This document shows positions 4,338 through 55,667 of a stretch of DNA of 64,000 nucleotides, piece after piece. The stretch spans positions 1 to 64,000 of the IMG/VR virus record IMGVR_UViG_3300030329_005813. One strand, 5' to 3'. Each line of letters begins with the position of its first letter. The stretch's first letter is position 1. The notes under the pieces were generated by a model that searched no databases, was not told the DNA's origin, and was given only the letters and a program-made list of their open reading frames with translations. The stretch comes from a virus. The position numbers and the translations under genes were made by a program.

Positions 4338-5597
4338 CTAAACCGTGATTTCAAGTACTTTTTCGTGTGTCTTGAAGAAAGGTTGGGTTGCACCGTAAGA
4401 ATCGGTCATCCACATACGCTGACAATTGCTTGGAATAGGCTTTGGAGCGCACATATCGGTAAGAACGATGTGACCATCGAGCTTCTGGCTGTTGACATAC
4501 TCCGTTGGGGCGTTAAAGCAGGTTCCACCGTACATAACACGCTCCCAAGGCTTTTTCTGTCCTTTCTTCCAGGTAAATACGAGATCTTCGTTAACCGTAG
4601 TATCAAAGGGTACAACCACGAACTCGGCATACTTGGCCAAGGCTTCAAGCTCCGAAAAGAAGGCTGCAAGCATCGAATTCGAGACACTACCGGACTGGTC
4701 GATACTAATGGCGATACGGGCAACGCGCTCAGAGCGCTTACCGGCGTGAATGTAGGGGAAACGCCGATTAATACGCTTCACGGTTGAACGCCGATTAGCC
4801 TTTTGGCTGGCTTTAACAAAGGAACGAAGTACCTTTCTCCAATCAACCTTTGAAGTGATGGACTCCATAATGGTCTTCTTCATGCCGGCAGAAACGGAGC
4901 CCCAACCTCGGGTATTGGCTTCTTCGGCGGCCTTCTTGACCATATCCTTAAGGCGCTCCTGGGCGATTTGCTGGTTTGTACCTTCCTCACCGGCTGATGC
5001 CTCGCCCCATCCAGAGTGGTCGTCAAGCGGCTCGGCGTCGCTCATACCGCCGCCCGAACCTTCACTATCGGAATCGCCTGAACCTTCGCCAGAGCCACCG
5101 CCCCCGCCGCCCTCTTTCTCTTCAAGAATGAGTTTGTAATAGGCTTCTGCGGATAATCCCTCTGGAAGGTCGGCGAACGTGTCGCGGCCTGGAATGAGAG
5201 CCGAAGGCGGCAATTCATCAGGAATATGGGTGTTAATCGCGAGATCCATCGCGATGTTCCACGTCTTGTTGATACCCTCTTCTGGCTTTCTGGTGGTACA
5301 ATGCCCATAAATCAGGTGGTAGAACTCGTGCATCAAGATACCACGAACCCACCGATACTTATTGTTGGCGTTCTCCTTGGTTTCTCCGCACTCTTTGATC
5401 ATACGCTCCATAAAATCTGGATTATAAACCAGTTCAAACCGGCCTTCTTCGGTAACGGTAACGCCAGCGGTAGGAACCGTGGAACAAGCTCGTTTATCGA
5501 GCCGGCGCGAAAGAGCGGCGAAGAACGGCTCATCAGAGAGAAGCCGATGAGTGTGCATGTTGAGGTTGAAAGTAGCTTTTGGGGCTTTATCAGACAT
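4338..5597 (-). CDS. HExxH metallopeptidase-like domain plus vWA domain protein (DUF2201-like), partner of MoxR AAA ATPase
   Basis: HEFYH, WNIAMDLAIN, Gly/Ser linker, MIDAS DQSGS, GGT and LTD motifs; start moved to MSDKAP because the upstream extension overlaps a promoter. Confidence 0.85.
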   Translation of the reverse strand: MSDKAPKATFNLNMHTHRLLSDEPFFAALSRRLDKRACSTVPTAGVTVTEEGRFELVYNPDFMERMIKECGETKENANNKYRWVRGILMHEFYHLIYGHCTTRKPEEGINKTWNIAMDLAINTHIPDELPPSALIPGRDTFADLPEGLSAEAYYKLILEEKEGGGGGGSGEGSGDSDSEGSGGGMSDAEPLDDHSGWGEASAGEEGTNQQIAQERLKDMVKKAAEEANTRGWGSVSAGMKKTIMESITSKVDWRKVLRSFVKASQKANRRSTVKRINRRFPYIHAGKRSERVARIAISIDQSGSVSNSMLAAFFSELEALAKYAEFVVVPFDTTVNEDLVFTWKKGQKKPWERVMYGGTCFNAPTEYVNSQKLDGHIVLTDMCAPKPIPSNCQRMWMTDSYGATQPFFKTHEKVLEITV

Positions 5598-5640
5598 CAA
5601 GTAGACTCCAGAGTCGGGAACTTCCCCGACCATTACAGTA

Positions 5641-14819: not shown

Positions 14820-14827
14820 AGAAAAAA

Positions 14828-15002
14828 AGATAGGTGCAAGCTTGGATTCCGCATATCCTCGGTGCGGGACCACCACCCCAGTCAACCTTTAATTGCCTTT
14901 CGACTTCGGTTTTCGTCCATAGTTCCAGTCAGTTTACCCGGCGTTCGTCGTTGACATTGAACGCCACCCATACATACAACATATTGAAACTTGCACCTAT
15001 CT
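14828..15002 (-). ncRNA. Candidate ~175-nt structured non-coding RNA (unclassified; possibly 6S-like)
   Basis: Ends pair as a 13-bp perfect helix (AGATAGGTGCAAG/CTTGCACCTATCT), 16 bp counting one G-U; internal GGCGTTC/GAACGCC and GTC-GAAA-GGC hairpins; no ORF in the track; U-run follows. Confidence 0.55.
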
Positions 15003-15006
15003 AATT

Positions 15007-15174
15007 TTAAATCTTGATTTCAAAATCTACGATTGAAGAGCCTCTATCTGGATTATCACTCTTTTTTTGTTCGTGCTGGTACGGCTGGGGCGGGGGAAGT
15101 TGAGGTTGAACGCAGGGTCTGTGCTGTCTCCTCCGTTCCTCTTCCTTTACTTTTTCGATAATCCATGGATTCAT
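15007..15174 (-). CDS. Small protein MNPWIIEKVKEEERRR...RGSSIVDFEIKI
   Basis: ACTACTTA motif upstream; Pro-rich middle. Confidence 0.55.
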   Translation of the reverse strand: MNPWIIEKVKEEERRRQHRPCVQPQLPPPQPYQHEQKKSDNPDRGSSIVDFEIKI

Positions 15175-15245
15175 AACTTTGCCCTCTACTTTTAAGTAGT
15201 GAGAAATAACCCAAGCTTCCATCTAGGTTTTCACGAAGAAGCAAC

Positions 15246-15416
15246 TCAGTCCCTCTTCAGGAGAACTAGATTATCTTCTTGAACAATTGAGGTAGTGCCT
15301 CGTTTATTTCCGCTTGTCCACAGAACTTTCCAGCAATACGAGATTGATGGACGCTCGGTGATAATACCCTTAGCGTTGTTTGAACCACGTTTTTGAACAA
15401 TATTACCAATGTGCAT
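15246..15416 (-). CDS. Small SH3/KOW-like protein, 56 aa; not in ORF track
   Basis: MHIGNIVQKR...KGIIT...WKVLW; GAGG RBS. Confidence 0.6.
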   Translation of the reverse strand: MHIGNIVQKRGSNNAKGIITERPSISYCWKVLWTSGNKRGTTSIVQEDNLVLLKRD

Positions 15417-15461: not shown

Positions 15462-15535
15462 TGGGCCTTCTCGGACTCGAACCGAGGACATTCCGGGTAT
15501 GAGCCGGACGCGCTGACCAACTGCGCCAAAGGCCC
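15462..15535 (-). tRNA. tRNA(CAU), Ile2-like or elongator Met
   Basis: GGGCCTT/AAGGCCC acceptor, GCGC/GCGC D-stem, TCCGG-CTCATAC-CCGGA anticodon arm; G1-C72 pair argues against initiator tRNA. Confidence 0.88.
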
Positions 15536-15879
15536 TAAAGGGTGTGTAAACCTGCGTGTACTTCACAATGACAATTATGACACAATAAAATACACTTGTC
15601 AAGTTCTATTTTTAGTTTTTCCCAAGCGACCGACGAACCTTTAGAACCTATTCCAAAACTCTTGGTCGATGGGTCGATATGGTGAAAACACAATGCTTGT
15701 ATACATTTATTGTATCCACATATTTGACAGCTTCCACCTTTATATTGAATACTCCTTACCTTGCTTCTTGTTCTGCTTTCATTTACATGACACGTATTGC
15801 ATTTATTTTTTGTATATCCTTTTTTCCTAAGTTCTTTGCTGTATTTATATTGTTTATTACATTTACCACACTGATTCAT
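15535..15879 (-). CDS. HNH homing endonuclease
   Basis: CQICGY...LCFHHIDP...CILLCHNCHCEVH; AAGGAG RBS; stop codon overlaps tRNA G1. Confidence 0.88.
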   Translation of the reverse strand: MNQCGKCNKQYKYSKELRKKGYTKNKCNTCHVNESRTRSKVRSIQYKGGSCQICGYNKCIQALCFHHIDPSTKSFGIGSKGSSVAWEKLKIELDKCILLCHNCHCEVHAGLHTL

Positions 15880-15923
15880 CTTTTGTTCTCCTTGCGTAGT
15901 AAATAGTATGTCATAGCAAAAAG

Positions 15924-15950
15924 TACTCTGACCAACTGAGCTAAAGGCCC
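15924..15950 (-). pseudogene. Orphan 5' fragment of the same tRNA (acceptor strand plus D arm)
   Basis: GGGCCTTTAGCTCAGTTGGTCAGAGTA versus intact copy GGGCCTTTGGCGCAGTTGGTCAGCGCG. Confidence 0.8.
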
Positions 15951-15958
15951 TTTAAATC

Positions 15959-16168
15959 TCATCTACCAGCCCATCGAGCGTCCTTCAACGTCATCATCGG
16001 CTGGTAAGCTCCCTTATTGAAAGCTGGGGCGGAGCAACGTGCTCGGTGTTGTGCGAGCTTGTTGGCGTCCACGTCGCCACAATCGAGGCAAGTTGTGTAA
16101 CCAAGTTGAGCGCGTTTGATATTGTATTCCTCGCCGCACTCGCTACAATGTACGATGTTCCTGCTCAT
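15959..16168 (-). CDS. TraR/DksA-type C4 zinc-finger-like small protein
   Basis: CSECGEEYNIKRAQLGYTTCLDC. Confidence 0.6.
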   Translation of the reverse strand: MSRNIVHCSECGEEYNIKRAQLGYTTCLDCGDVDANKLAQHRARCSAPAFNKGAYQPMMTLKDARWAGR

Positions 16169-16181
16169 TCTTCGTTCTCCT

Positions 16182-16406
16182 TCAAACTGGTGGTTCGCCA
16201 CAGCGAACCTCCACTACCCCATCAACATACAAGAAGTAAAACACGTCCTGCTCGCTCACTTCACAGGGTAGCAGAAGGGCAGGGATGTCAAAGCGGCGAA
16301 TCTCGTTGTTAGTGCTAGTTATCTCGACGTGAACGACGCCGTTGTCAATCGAGTCAATCGTCCCAATACATAGAACAGAAACCAAAGCTGTTTGTAAGTA
16401 ATTCAC
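16182..16406 (-). CDS. Small beta-barrel-like hypothetical protein
   Basis: ORF track; AGGAG RBS. Confidence 0.55.
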   Translation of the reverse strand: MNYLQTALVSVLCIGTIDSIDNGVVHVEITSTNNEIRRFDIPALLLPCEVSEQDVFYFLYVDGVVEVRCGEPPV

Positions 16407-18100: not shown

Positions 18101-19054
18101 CTACTTCGGAATTGTCATACGTTCATCGTAGGCTTTCGCCTTAAGGTCCGATAATCTACTTAGCTCCTCGCTTCTTCTTAATACCTTGAAAGATAAGTTT
18201 TCAACTGAATATTGGCCTGTGCCCTCCAGGCCGGATCGACGCATATTTCGGATTTTGGCCTTCAAACGGTCAATTGCATCAAGTACCTCGTCGCCTTCTT
18301 CGTCTGCCATCATCTTTTCAATATGCGAGATTCTATCTGATATATCCTGAGCTTTTTTCTCCACGTTGGCGTAATCGATACTAACTGGTTCTGGGGTGGG
18401 TTTCGTTATCCATTCATCATTTTGGATCGAGTATATACCAGTTGAAAGGTGCGGTTCGTTAGAATCTTGAAAGTATATTTCTACCTCATAGCCCTTCATA
18501 TAGATATCGTGGCGGTTGTTCCAGTTTGTCTGAAGATTTCTAAATAGTTCTTTTACAAGCTCGATATTTTCGTCAATCGTTTCGAAATCAAGAACGATAT
18601 GTAAATCTATATCAGAGTATTTAGACCAGTTATAGTTGGCCAAAGAGCCGGTCAAAGTTATGTCTTCGGGATTTACGTCAAACTCTAAATCAACAAGGAA
18701 ATCACTAACAATTTTTAATAATGCTTGTCGAACCTCTGGATTTAGTTTATCGGCTTGCCACACTTCAGGCTCCAAAGTGTCGTGGACCTCGAATGATTTT
18801 AAAGCATCGGCCTGTATTTTCTCTTGCAAGCCTTCAAAACGCAAATGTGAAGTGCCAAATCTTTGCACATTACCGACAAATGGGCTTCCTGACTTAACAT
18901 TTTCGTGGCCGGAGGATCTGGTATACACGTCGTTTCTTTTACGACGAGCTTTCATTTTCTTCTGAAACGGGCTCGTAAGTTGACTTTGCTCCTTGGCTTC
19001 TGTCAACCTTTGAAAGTTTTTCCATTTGCGTTCAAAAGACATAATGATTCTCAC
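18101..19054 (-). CDS. Pol-beta superfamily nucleotidyltransferase
   Basis: LTGSLANYNWSKYSDIDLHI (hGS...DxD) plus a third acidic residue in EVEIY. Confidence 0.85.
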   Translation of the reverse strand: MRIIMSFERKWKNFQRLTEAKEQSQLTSPFQKKMKARRKRNDVYTRSSGHENVKSGSPFVGNVQRFGTSHLRFEGLQEKIQADALKSFEVHDTLEPEVWQADKLNPEVRQALLKIVSDFLVDLEFDVNPEDITLTGSLANYNWSKYSDIDLHIVLDFETIDENIELVKELFRNLQTNWNNRHDIYMKGYEVEIYFQDSNEPHLSTGIYSIQNDEWITKPTPEPVSIDYANVEKKAQDISDRISHIEKMMADEEGDEVLDAIDRLKAKIRNMRRSGLEGTGQYSVENLSFKVLRRSEELSRLSDLKAKAYDERMTIPK

Positions 19055-19438: not shown

Positions 19439-20473
19439 CTAAAACTCTTCTTGACGACCATCCGACCAAGTAATAATAGTTTTGTTTGTAGGGTGAGGAT
19501 TGATGTGAACGCGTTTAAAGTCCTCGATGCTCTCAAAGATGGCTATCGAGCCCTTGGGAGTGGGGGTAAGCCAATGCAGTACCACCTGCCCGGTGGCGTA
19601 CTGAACGCCCTCTATGACCACCCCAGTCCCCGATATGCCGCTCTCATCTCCCTGCCTACAAATAGTAAACGTCTCGATGCCACGAGGGGCAAACTTCGTA
19701 GGGGGCTTAGGTTTAAGTGCTTCTGCGTCTGTTTTAACAACTTCAGCCGAAGGAGGGCCAACGAGGATTTCCCAGGTATGTCTATAGTCTTTGACCTTTT
19801 CAAATGCGTCAGTCTCATTAAGTTCTTTAAGAACTGGATAATCATTTCCGCCGGGTTGGAGCTTATCTCCAAAGAAATGAATGGAGCAGCCATCGTGCCA
19901 CTCTCTTAAATAAGGGATTGAACGAGACTTATCATATCCGCTTGGACTAACATCAATACTAATCTGGCCACCAACATTAAAAGTTAAGTCTTCATACTTT
20001 TTACGCAGAATAGAAACTATTTTTTCTCTTTCGCCCGCCTCTTTGTCCCAACTAGCATATTCTTCTCTTTGTTCTAAATTGCAGTTACGACCAATGGTAC
20101 TAAAATTAATCATACCGGTTCTTTGTTCAATGTGATTGCCGGTTTTAACTGGACAGTCCGAACTCTGAACAAACAAATTTAGATCGTTTAGTAGCATTTC
20201 GGATGGTTCAAAAACGCCCCTATACTCTACCTTTTCTTGGCCAAAGTTATCTTGACTTTGCCAAAATGCATTTCCAGAACAAGTAAAGATACCATAGCAT
20301 AAACGCAAGATATCCTCTGGAACTTGCTCCAGCACCTTAACCCAGTCTGAGCCCGTGCTTAAATATACAATATTTTCTTTACAAAACTCTCTAAAGAACT
20401 CGGCGAAGTCTTCAACCATAAGCTGTCTGGCGGGAGTTAAAGTCCCGTCAATATCAAATAAGTATATTTTCAC
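19439..20473 (-). CDS. Eukaryote-type phosphomannomutase (HAD-IIB) fused to an extra C-terminal domain
   Basis: FDIDGTLTPAR, TGSD, IEQRTGMINFSTIGRNC, GGQISIDV, FFGDK..PGGNDY. Confidence 0.85.
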   Translation of the reverse strand: MKIYLFDIDGTLTPARQLMVEDFAEFFREFCKENIVYLSTGSDWVKVLEQVPEDILRLCYGIFTCSGNAFWQSQDNFGQEKVEYRGVFEPSEMLLNDLNLFVQSSDCPVKTGNHIEQRTGMINFSTIGRNCNLEQREEYASWDKEAGEREKIVSILRKKYEDLTFNVGGQISIDVSPSGYDKSRSIPYLREWHDGCSIHFFGDKLQPGGNDYPVLKELNETDAFEKVKDYRHTWEILVGPPSAEVVKTDAEALKPKPPTKFAPRGIETFTICRQGDESGISGTGVVIEGVQYATGQVVLHWLTPTPKGSIAIFESIEDFKRVHINPHPTNKTIITWSDGRQEEF

Positions 20474-54542: not shown

Positions 54543-55667
54543 TTATTCATCTTCGCCATCAATATCATAAAATTCTTTGGCGTCGACTTCTTTCTTCTCG
54601 AATTTAAGAATAACTTCCTGTTCCATAAGTTGCAAAATGCGATTACGAAACTTGTCATCTTGCAACTTACTAATCCAAGTGGCAGACTGAAACTTTTCTT
54701 CTGAGCCATCTTCATACTTAAGCGTAAACCATGCACCGGCATTTGTAATGTGCTTAGAACTCTTAATAGCCTCTAACCAAGATTCTTCATCTTGAATCTT
54801 CACATCATCGCCTGCCCATAAGATCTTAAATGTGCATTCTCGCGCATCAGAGCCAAACCTTGACTTCTTAATCTTAGCCTTAACCTCAGTGCCAACCCTA
54901 AAGCCCTTATCGTCGTAAATGAAGCTAGCTTTTCCTCGACGGGCGGTAAGCCAGATGCGAAGCGAATAAGCGTAGATTGCAGCCTTTCCACCAGGGGTAA
55001 AATAGGGCTCCAAACGGGCTTCTGCGATATTGCTTGTAATGTTGGTCTTAAGTTGGTTTAGGATAAGCAAGGTTGATTGTGAGTTGGCAATCGGCACAGT
55101 TAACTTAGAAAACCCTTTTGACAAAATACGAGGCTTAACCGCCATACTGGATAAAGGATTGAAATCACCATCGATATCCGAAATAGCAGGCGTCATAGCC
55201 AGCGAATCCCAGATAAAAAGCATTTGGTTTTCATTGCCGGCTAATAACTCCTCAATCGTTTCTAGAACAAACTCGACCGATTGAGCCTGGATATAAAGTA
55301 GATTTTCAATATCACAGCCCGCATTTGCCAAAAACTCTGGGTCTACAGCAGACTCAGAGTCAAAATATACCACATCAATCCCCATTTTCTGAGCATTGCC
55401 AGCAACCTGAGCCGCCATATATGACTTACCAGACGCTGAAAGACCAGCAATCTCGCTGATCTTACCCACTGGAATCCCAGCATACCTGCCTCGACAAATA
55501 ATAGAGTTTAACCAACGAGATCCGGTTGGGATCCACTGCTTAACTTCTGTAGGATTTGAATCCCCTAGGTCGTGTGCCACAGTTACGCCGGCCTTTTTAT
55601 TAACAATCTTTCGCATATCAGCGATAGAAAGTTTTCCAGCTTTAGGCTTTTTTGATGTACGTGGCAT
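54543..55667 (-). CDS. recA: RecA/UvsX recombinase
   Basis: IPTGS, EIAGLSASGKS, DSE, IWDS, LNQLK, TPGGKA. Confidence 0.9.
   Translation of the reverse strand: MPRTSKKPKAGKLSIADMRKIVNKKAGVTVAHDLGDSNPTEVKQWIPTGSRWLNSIICRGRYAGIPVGKISEIAGLSASGKSYMAAQVAGNAQKMGIDVVYFDSESAVDPEFLANAGCDIENLLYIQAQSVEFVLETIEELLAGNENQMLFIWDSLAMTPAISDIDGDFNPLSSMAVKPRILSKGFSKLTVPIANSQSTLLILNQLKTNITSNIAEARLEPYFTPGGKAAIYAYSLRIWLTARRGKASFIYDDKGFRVGTEVKAKIKKSRFGSDARECTFKILWAGDDVKIQDEESWLEAIKSSKHITNAGAWFTLKYEDGSEEKFQSATWISKLQDDKFRNRILQLMEQEVILKFEKKEVDAKEFYDIDGEDE

Follow-up and report, generated by a model that had tools for sequence, protein, structure and literature searches.

The DNA analysed here (the window; 64,000 nucleotides) covers the initial 64 kb of one phage contig of 172,361 bases (172 kb) from an uncultured aquatic phage, which was matched by marine and estuarine sequencing runs. 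The contig encodes phage-type replication genes, i.e. a DNA polymerase, a ribonucleotide reductase, a DnaB-like helicase and a UvsX-like recombinase, in addition to GroEL, and it harbours seven tRNAs and one tmRNA. The locus under study is organized on the minus strand, where a gene for an 80-aa zinc-ribbon protein (15959-16201; homologs in contigs L313 and L314, a synteny marker outside the cassette) is followed after 8 nt by a tRNA 5' fragment (15926-15950), a ACTATTTA motif representing a probable late-type promoter element (15900-15907), an RBS (AAGGAG; 15888-15893) located 8 nt before an ATG, an HNH ORF (15535-15879) and a tRNA gene with anticodon CAU (15535-15462). The motif, the RBS and the complete tRNA(CAU) had all been reported in a preliminary description of this sequence and were found at these positions. 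The tRNA scored 69.2 bits against Rfam, has no encoded CCA, and its G1 represents the last base of the HNH TAG stop codon.

Several other features were observed on the minus strand of the window. Positions 18101-19054 encode a Pol-beta-type nucleotidyltransferase and positions 19439-20473 a phosphomannomutase-like HAD protein; a connection with the missing CCA of the tRNA is conceivable. A structured stretch of approximately 180 nt at 14822-15008 has a long closing terminal stem (fold z -3.7, equalled by 0 of 200 shuffles) and did not match Rfam at gathering score; homologous DNA is present in L314 and partial matches in other contigs. This stretch is, as a guess, a candidate non-coding RNA of 6S-like size and shape. 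Coverage of the window by RNA run X20 is confined to 15139-15299.

The deduced 114-aa product of the HNH ORF matched PHROG 2255 (HNH) across residues 1-112 (E 1.2e-27), in agreement with the earlier assignment of this ORF, and is the only PHROG 2255 member in the genome; no Pfam family was matched. The protein consists of an N-terminal CxxC/CxxC zinc module and a zinc-binding HNH domain, with residues H66, H67, C96, C100, C103 and H104 being invariant in the family alignment. The middle Asn position of the HNH motif appears to be occupied by a lysine (Lys95) throughout the family. The gene is free-standing, with its own RBS, start and stop codons and no Rfam intron match, and appears to lie outside any intron or intein; it is optional, as both filled and empty alleles occur in near relatives, and its profile match and conserved His/Cys core place it among HNH endonucleases of the PHROG 2255 type. 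Its GC content is 33.6%, compared with 40.7% for the genome and 53% for the upstream gene. The homologs retrieved from bacterial genomes were mostly from Patescibacteria and Acidobacteria. A 431-aa ORF at 4341-5633 (minus strand), which matches PHROG 1314 (annotated as an HNH endonuclease; E 4e-52), is unrelated to the 114-aa protein.

An AlphaFold2 model of the HNH protein was obtained with a pLDDT of 94.5. Structural comparison returned HNH domains as the top matches, these being weak (Cap5, Z 4.5, rmsd 3.3, 63 aligned residues; McrA, Z 4.0, rmsd 2.8, 59 aligned residues), and Foldseek retrieved nothing at E≤0.001 (best E 0.13). A homodimer model scored 0.63 (best control 0.00), with contacts 100% alike between runs and a pLDDT of at least 85; the mark applied to this score was passed by 20 of 30 solved dimers versus 1 of 23 solved single chains. 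The score may reflect resemblance to solved HNH dimers, and the modelled enzyme is probably a dimer. In more than 20 loci of the family, the stop codon of the HNH ORF is a conserved TAG at tRNA nt 8-10; in the window, the stop overlaps G1. It may be speculated that tRNA 5' processing would clip this stop, leaving a non-stop mRNA and possibly damping nuclease expression. The tmRNA of this phage is encoded at contig positions 154194-154526.

The state of the locus without the HNH gene was observed directly in HNH-less contigs of DNA runs X3, X4 and X6, which originate from three independent studies. In these contigs, position 15510 is joined to 15926, exactly 415 bases being skipped, with one base (a single G) of ambiguity at the joint. 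They differ from the window flanks at 6-9 positions per ~1,300 bases (~99% alike) and show zero differences in both tRNA parts. The resulting empty allele is a single canonical tRNA cloverleaf with a GCTC/GAGC D stem, in which the stranded 5' piece runs on into the 3' part, as had been proposed for relatives lacking the HNH gene; the opposing expectation, that such relatives would hold both tRNA copies, is contradicted by the presence of one tRNA in each of these near-identical contigs. The more distant, syntenic contig L313 has the same arrangement, its upstream gene (71% identical) being followed by one canonical tRNA(CAU) in the absence of the HNH gene, at the place where in the window the stranded piece begins 8 nt past the stop of the upstream gene.

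Because the empty allele joins 15510 to 15926, the stranded piece can be delimited to 25 nt (tRNA nt 1-25; 15926-15950) and the cassette to 15925-15511, the last 25 nt of which (15511-15535) replace the tRNA start, while nt 26-74 (15462-15510), including the anticodon, represent the native 3' part. The replacement start and the native 3' part together form a whole predicted cloverleaf. The preliminary description was thus correct in recognizing an orphan fragment from 15950, but of its 27 nt only nt 1-25 are native, T26 and A27 being part of the insert; similarly, its insertion after the D arm is right in placing the event inside the tRNA gene, but the exact point is tRNA nt 25|26, one base inside the 3' strand of the D stem. 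The cassette is almost certainly an optional 415-bp insert that brings a replacement 5' end into the tRNA(CAU) gene.

Both tRNA starts contain an 11-nt perfect repeat, and a deletion would be expected there; as the joint falls outside it, the empty allele does not appear to have arisen by loss of the sequence between repeats. A search of viral contigs with the canonical start gave 120 matches, 117 of which represent a whole tRNA(CAU) with no HNH gene of the PHROG 2255-type family nearby, whereas the recoded start pattern was matched once. From these sequence comparisons we infer that the filled state is derived. Runs X3, X4 and X6 all hold the empty allele, and the cassette has therefore not swept those populations. 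A second presence/absence difference was observed at 16165-16180 of the window, where the three HNH-less strains carry approximately 300 extra bases with a 16-nt overlap at the ends; this is perhaps a gene lost between repeated RBS regions.

Compared with the empty allele, the tRNA start of the filled allele carries three differences, i.e. A to G, T to G and A to C at linear positions 9, 12 and 24 (9, 12 and 23 in standard numbering). The stranded copy is identical to the empty allele at 25 of 25 positions and the imported copy at 22 of 25. Five differences within 27 nt had been counted previously, a number that was reproduced, although the true differences from the empty allele are three; the reported compensatory D-stem change to GCGC/GCGC is likewise real, but the native stem is GCTC/GAGC rather than GCTC/GAGT. 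Bases 9, 12 and 23 form a core tRNA triple predicted by Levitt, in which A9 accompanies U12-A23 and G9 accompanies G12-C23 (PMC3287178). The replacement swaps this triple from A/U-A to G/G-C, and because the three bases are exchanged in concert, the replacement start is kept functional in shape. Across the tRNAs of the fetched loci, A9 was found in 252 of 258 with U12-A23, and G9 in 55 of 88 with G12-C23.

The cloverleaf of tRNA(CAU) contains G3-C70, C4-G69 and C5-G68 and neither A11-U24 nor C1:A72, these being Ile2/Met discriminators (PMC1635315). Judged by its acceptor-stem identity, the tRNA is probably of the Ile2 (lysidine) type rather than Met. G12-C23 is atypical for both Ile2 and Met tRNAs and is otherwise a mark of fMet tRNAs (PMC1635315), so that the recoded state is unusual for a tRNA-Ile2. 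The four other class I tRNAs of this phage retain the canonical D stem. A tRNA-Ile(TAT), a second possible AUA reader, is also encoded (contig 153102-153174), and AUA accounts for 753 of the 2,900 Ile codons in long ORFs.

The motif upstream of the HNH gene is conserved in the cassettes of relatives and conforms to ACTA(A/T)TTA, which precedes 12 of 106 long ORFs in this genome, mostly 20-25 nt ahead of the start, and is absent from the antisense and coding controls. This distribution suggests that ACTA(A/T)TTA may function as a late promoter. Adjoining it is an inverted repeat with 8-bp arms and a 7-nt spacer (15910-15932, minus strand), the left arm of which is the stranded D-loop/D-stem sequence and the right arm cassette DNA. 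The repeat is imperfect (six of eight pairs and one G-T), its local fold z is -2.3, and its position is conserved in each of the eight close relatives that were aligned, including those in which the remainder of the tRNA fragment has been lost. In L146, L335 and L339, the inverted repeat brackets a TTGAC box. Inverted repeats of 8 bp with a 7-nt spacer were found upstream of 22 of 109 family genes versus 23 of 339 controls, and those with a 9-nt spacer upstream of 22 family genes versus 15 controls; a pattern search of viral contigs for the inverted repeat together with the promoter motif found nothing. The repeat is tentatively proposed as an autorepression operator, at somewhat less than even probability; alternatively, it may be read as an RNA hairpin, which here would leave the RBS uncovered. 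Other upstream palindromes with a 7-nt spacer were observed in other branches (GATTAAC/GTTAATC and GGTATAAC/GTTATACC; L187, L214, L216, L243 and L264, and L182, L254 and L294), often beside tRNA-Asn, whose anticodon loop resembles GATTAAC/GTTAATC, and some of them enclose the RBS.

The layout with a stranded start recurs in relatives of the cassette in tRNA-Ile2, -Asn, -Val, -Lys and -Asp genes. Near relatives were named from a FastTree tree, which is poorly resolved and served only for that purpose. Contigs L002 and L003 (protein 92% identical) contain a stranded start and a tRNA(CAU) with G9/G12-C23, L004 and L005 (69%) contain the same recoded tRNA preceded by a remnant only, and L006-L008 (58%) show the full layout in a tRNA-Asn gene. 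L010 and L017 have upstream remnants and D stems changed in other ways, and in L004, L010, L017 and L223 the upstream piece is mostly lost and the whole downstream tRNA retained. In total, the D stem is changed in six of seven distinct close relatives having a whole downstream tRNA. L223 (protein 73% identical) has a canonical GCTC/GAGC D stem in its downstream tRNA, together with an unusual U31 (found in 1 of 85 canonical viral tRNA(CAU) genes), and L322 carries a G12-C23 tRNA(CAU) with no HNH gene upstream. Across the family, canonical D arms downstream of HNH genes were weakly depleted (10 of 56 versus 138 of 449; p=0.06); D-stem recoding was dropped as a family-wide rule, this being only a trend.

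Stranded D-arm fragments are commoner than expected by chance. They were found upstream of 15 of 116 family HNH genes, compared with 7 of 348 ORFs taken from these loci as controls (p=1.5e-5), and a tRNA is located at the stop of 65 of 116 family genes versus 48 of 348 control ORFs. Family insertions fall repeatedly at tRNA nt 23-33. In the cultured Bacillus phages Anthony and Vinny, comparison with Evoli, Hoody T and CAM003 places a homolog after the D arm of tRNA-Asp; 5 nt have been lost there, and a replacement end is missing. The closely syntenic contig L314 carries a different homolog in inverted orientation, which follows nt 23 of this tRNA(CAU) start, and lacks any tRNA within 6 kb; in both L140 and L314, the tRNA is destroyed and a replacement absent. 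Insertion in this tRNA zone is therefore recurrent and repair optional. The inverted homolog of L314 (3210-3790) is a 178-aa HTH-HNH protein whose final codons come from the D loop of that tRNA start, read in antisense; its ACTATTTA motif lies within an inverted repeat, and the disrupted tRNA lies after the zinc-ribbon homolog.

Chimeric landings were also encountered. The proteins of L009 and L010 are the same, and their cassette DNA is shared as far as the anticodon loop (one difference in 379 nt), beyond which the two contigs diverge. In L009, the 3' acceptor strand is complementary to the stranded start rather than to its imported counterpart, consistent with L009 being a fresh landing in a different allele. 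In the tRNA-Val gene of L335, the 3' acceptor strand pairs at 7 of 7 positions with the stranded piece versus 6 with the imported start. Both cases may be taken as indirect signs of over-inheritance in mixed infection. Two further arrangements were noted. In L129 (556-1348), the start of this tRNA(CAU) is likewise stranded; behind it come an unrelated ORF of 229 aa that looks nuclease-like (by eye, of the PD-(D/E)XK type) and an aberrant tRNA(CAU) (32.3 bits) whose D region is short and whose extra arm is long, suggestive of a convergent invasion of the same tRNA site. A sister group (L011-L016, L149 and L150) is found downstream of a complete tRNA-Asn whose D stem is non-canonical, and lacks a stranded piece. 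Felix O1 was rejected as a cultured model of the stranded-fragment layout, as its homolog lies between whole tRNAs without a stranded piece.

The empty allele contains a pseudo-palindrome, GAGC-N5-GCTC, that extends from the 3' strand of the D stem to the anticodon arm (6 of 8 pairs in longer arms) and is centred near nt 29. The empty allele has the extended bipartite site, whereas the filled genome lacks it, the four other canonical D arms encoded there being combined with different anticodon arms. Among the three recoded bases, only A23 to C lies within the candidate site. The bases lost in Anthony, and those presumably lost in L009, correspond to the same stretch.

Taken as a whole, the best explanation, and in our view a likely one, is that an HNH homing cassette targets the tRNA gene, repairs it and gains immunity through recoding. 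That the enzyme cuts the empty tRNA(CAU) allele and homes is a well-favoured component of this reading, and immunity conferred by the recoding a reasonably probable one. During mixed infection, the enzyme, probably as a dimer, would cut the empty allele at GAGC-N5-GCTC, and repair of the break would copy the cassette, with homology supplied on the left by the stranded 5' piece and the upstream gene and on the right by the tRNA 3' part. Immunity of the filled allele would arise because the stranded piece is no longer beside the anticodon arm and the rebuilt tRNA carries A23 to C in the left half-site; U12 to G and A9 to G would preserve the tRNA fold. The stranded half-site and its inverted copy in the cassette, with a spacer of 7 rather than 5 nt, might then serve as the autorepression operator.

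The most serious competing explanation is intronless homing at a distance, in which the enzyme cuts another site (a different tRNA gene or a neighbour), the cassette arrived together with a foreign tRNA piece through recombination at short tRNA homology, and G9/G12-C23 is a donor allele that hitchhiked and confers no resistance. There is precedent in T4 SegB, which sits between tRNA genes and cuts other tRNA genes (PMC2330249), and several relatives fit this view: the Felix O1 homolog lacks a stranded piece and HNH-less relatives of that phage may carry the same tRNA allele, L223 is canonical, L322 is recoded without an HNH gene, and the family-wide depletion reaches only p=0.06. However, the flanks are ~99% alike and tRNA sequence is changed only inside the cassette, so that no other resistant site travelled along, and the repeated insertion of family members at tRNA nt 23-33 also speaks against it. 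Homing at a distance is accordingly regarded as improbable, though with an appreciable chance.

Selection of the D-stem recoding for its effect on the RNA (evasion of a host tRNA nuclease, or improved folding or modification), with the HNH gene as a passenger or dead, is considered very unlikely. Host defences are known to cut tRNAs and phage tRNAs to counter them (PMC13096335), and other tRNAs of L002 also have GCGC/GCGC stems. Nevertheless, near-identical strains retain the canonical allele, the recoded state follows the HNH gene across differing acceptor and anticodon stems, and the ORF is intact, with its invariant His and Cys residues.

Splicing of the mature tRNA from the upstream piece and the 3' part, as an intron or a split tRNA, is less probable still, even though the upstream 25 nt and nt 26-74 would together reproduce the canonical tRNA exactly and the last base of the insert is a G. 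Splice sites of group I introns follow a U, unlike the G that precedes the joint here. Furthermore, no Rfam intron family was matched, the ORF occupies 345 of the 415 nt and leaves no room for a catalytic core, the 415-base skip was observed in DNA-type runs, and little is left of the upstream piece in L004, L010, L017 and L223, although their downstream tRNA is whole. A group I intron in the tRNA was therefore rejected on the absence of an Rfam match and the dispensability of the upstream piece in relatives, in line with the non-intron element originally suggested. That the filled state is ancestral or an assembly artefact, with empty strains arising by deletion between the two tRNA starts, has a negligible chance: the two runs with full coverage may be the source sample, but the independent contigs L002 and L003 share the layout, the joint lies away from the long perfect repeat, the canonical allele is the one generally encountered and the GC content of the insert is atypical.

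Integrative elements are known to restore tRNA genes at attB. The homing cassette resembles them in that the gene is split on insertion and rebuilt by an element-borne piece, as had been pointed out in the preliminary description, together with the lack of an integrase; indeed, the 415 bp contain neither an integrase nor an att core, only a nuclease, and recombination must therefore come from the phage, which encodes a UvsX-like recombinase (54546-55667). A closer analogy is provided by the mobile ORFs that form gene hybrids in fungal mitochondria, described for atp6 of Allomyces macrogynus and for atp6, atp9, cox2 and nad3 of Glomus (PMC3630166). In both systems, a non-intron endonuclease element lies inside a gene, a diverged copy of a gene end is imported and the native end is stranded, the native end being closer to the empty relative than the imported end (here 25/25 versus 22/25). 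The fungal elements encode LAGLIDADG or GIY-YIG enzymes and replace the 3' end of protein genes, whereas an HNH enzyme and the 5' end of a phage tRNA gene are involved here, and recoding is bound by RNA tertiary structure rather than by synonymous codons. The cassette thus works like the fungal gene-hybrid ORFs without being a member of that group.

T4 SegB, a free-standing GIY-YIG enzyme (PMC2330249, PMC13096335), is likewise a phage endonuclease encoded beside tRNA genes, and use of conserved tRNA gene sequence as a target is shown for SegB and inferred for the present HNH protein. SegB is located between tRNA genes, recognizes a T-arm motif and is associated with long co-conversion, whereas the cassette lies inside its target tRNA gene at the D stem, with 25 nt swapped. 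The putative operator is reminiscent of I-TevI autorepression (PMC2988022), where a target-like sequence also lies beside the late promoter of the endonuclease gene; in the present case such a role is putative, and the sequence is an inverted repeat to which the stranded target contributes one half. Viral tRNA clusters containing HNH genes are on record, but not with such an arrangement (PMC6409571), and a literature search, thin on subscription journals, found no description of a nuclease gene that sits in a tRNA gene without an intron and supplies a replacement end.

New in this study are the near-isogenic empty allele, the exact boundary, the triple swap, and a testable model of site and operator. 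With a near-isogenic filled/empty pair, the decisive test shrinks to a 114-aa enzyme and two 74-bp substrates that are three bases apart, and the cultured Bacillus phages make a laboratory cross possible for this HNH family. The broader proposition, that a widespread HNH family homes intron-less into the junction of D stem and anticodon stem of tRNA genes, repairs them with a 5' end recoded by a swap of the tertiary base triple and converts the stranded half-target into an autorepression operator, a single insertion combining gene repair, self-immunity and self-regulation, is put forward as a speculative and rather doubtful generalization. The locus indicates that a homing nuclease can occupy a structural RNA gene without splicing, by gene-end replacement under the rules of RNA structure. 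This may explain how phage genomes come by their many odd, recoded or chimeric tRNAs and tRNA half-genes, which are usually put down to codon use or escape from host tRNA nucleases.
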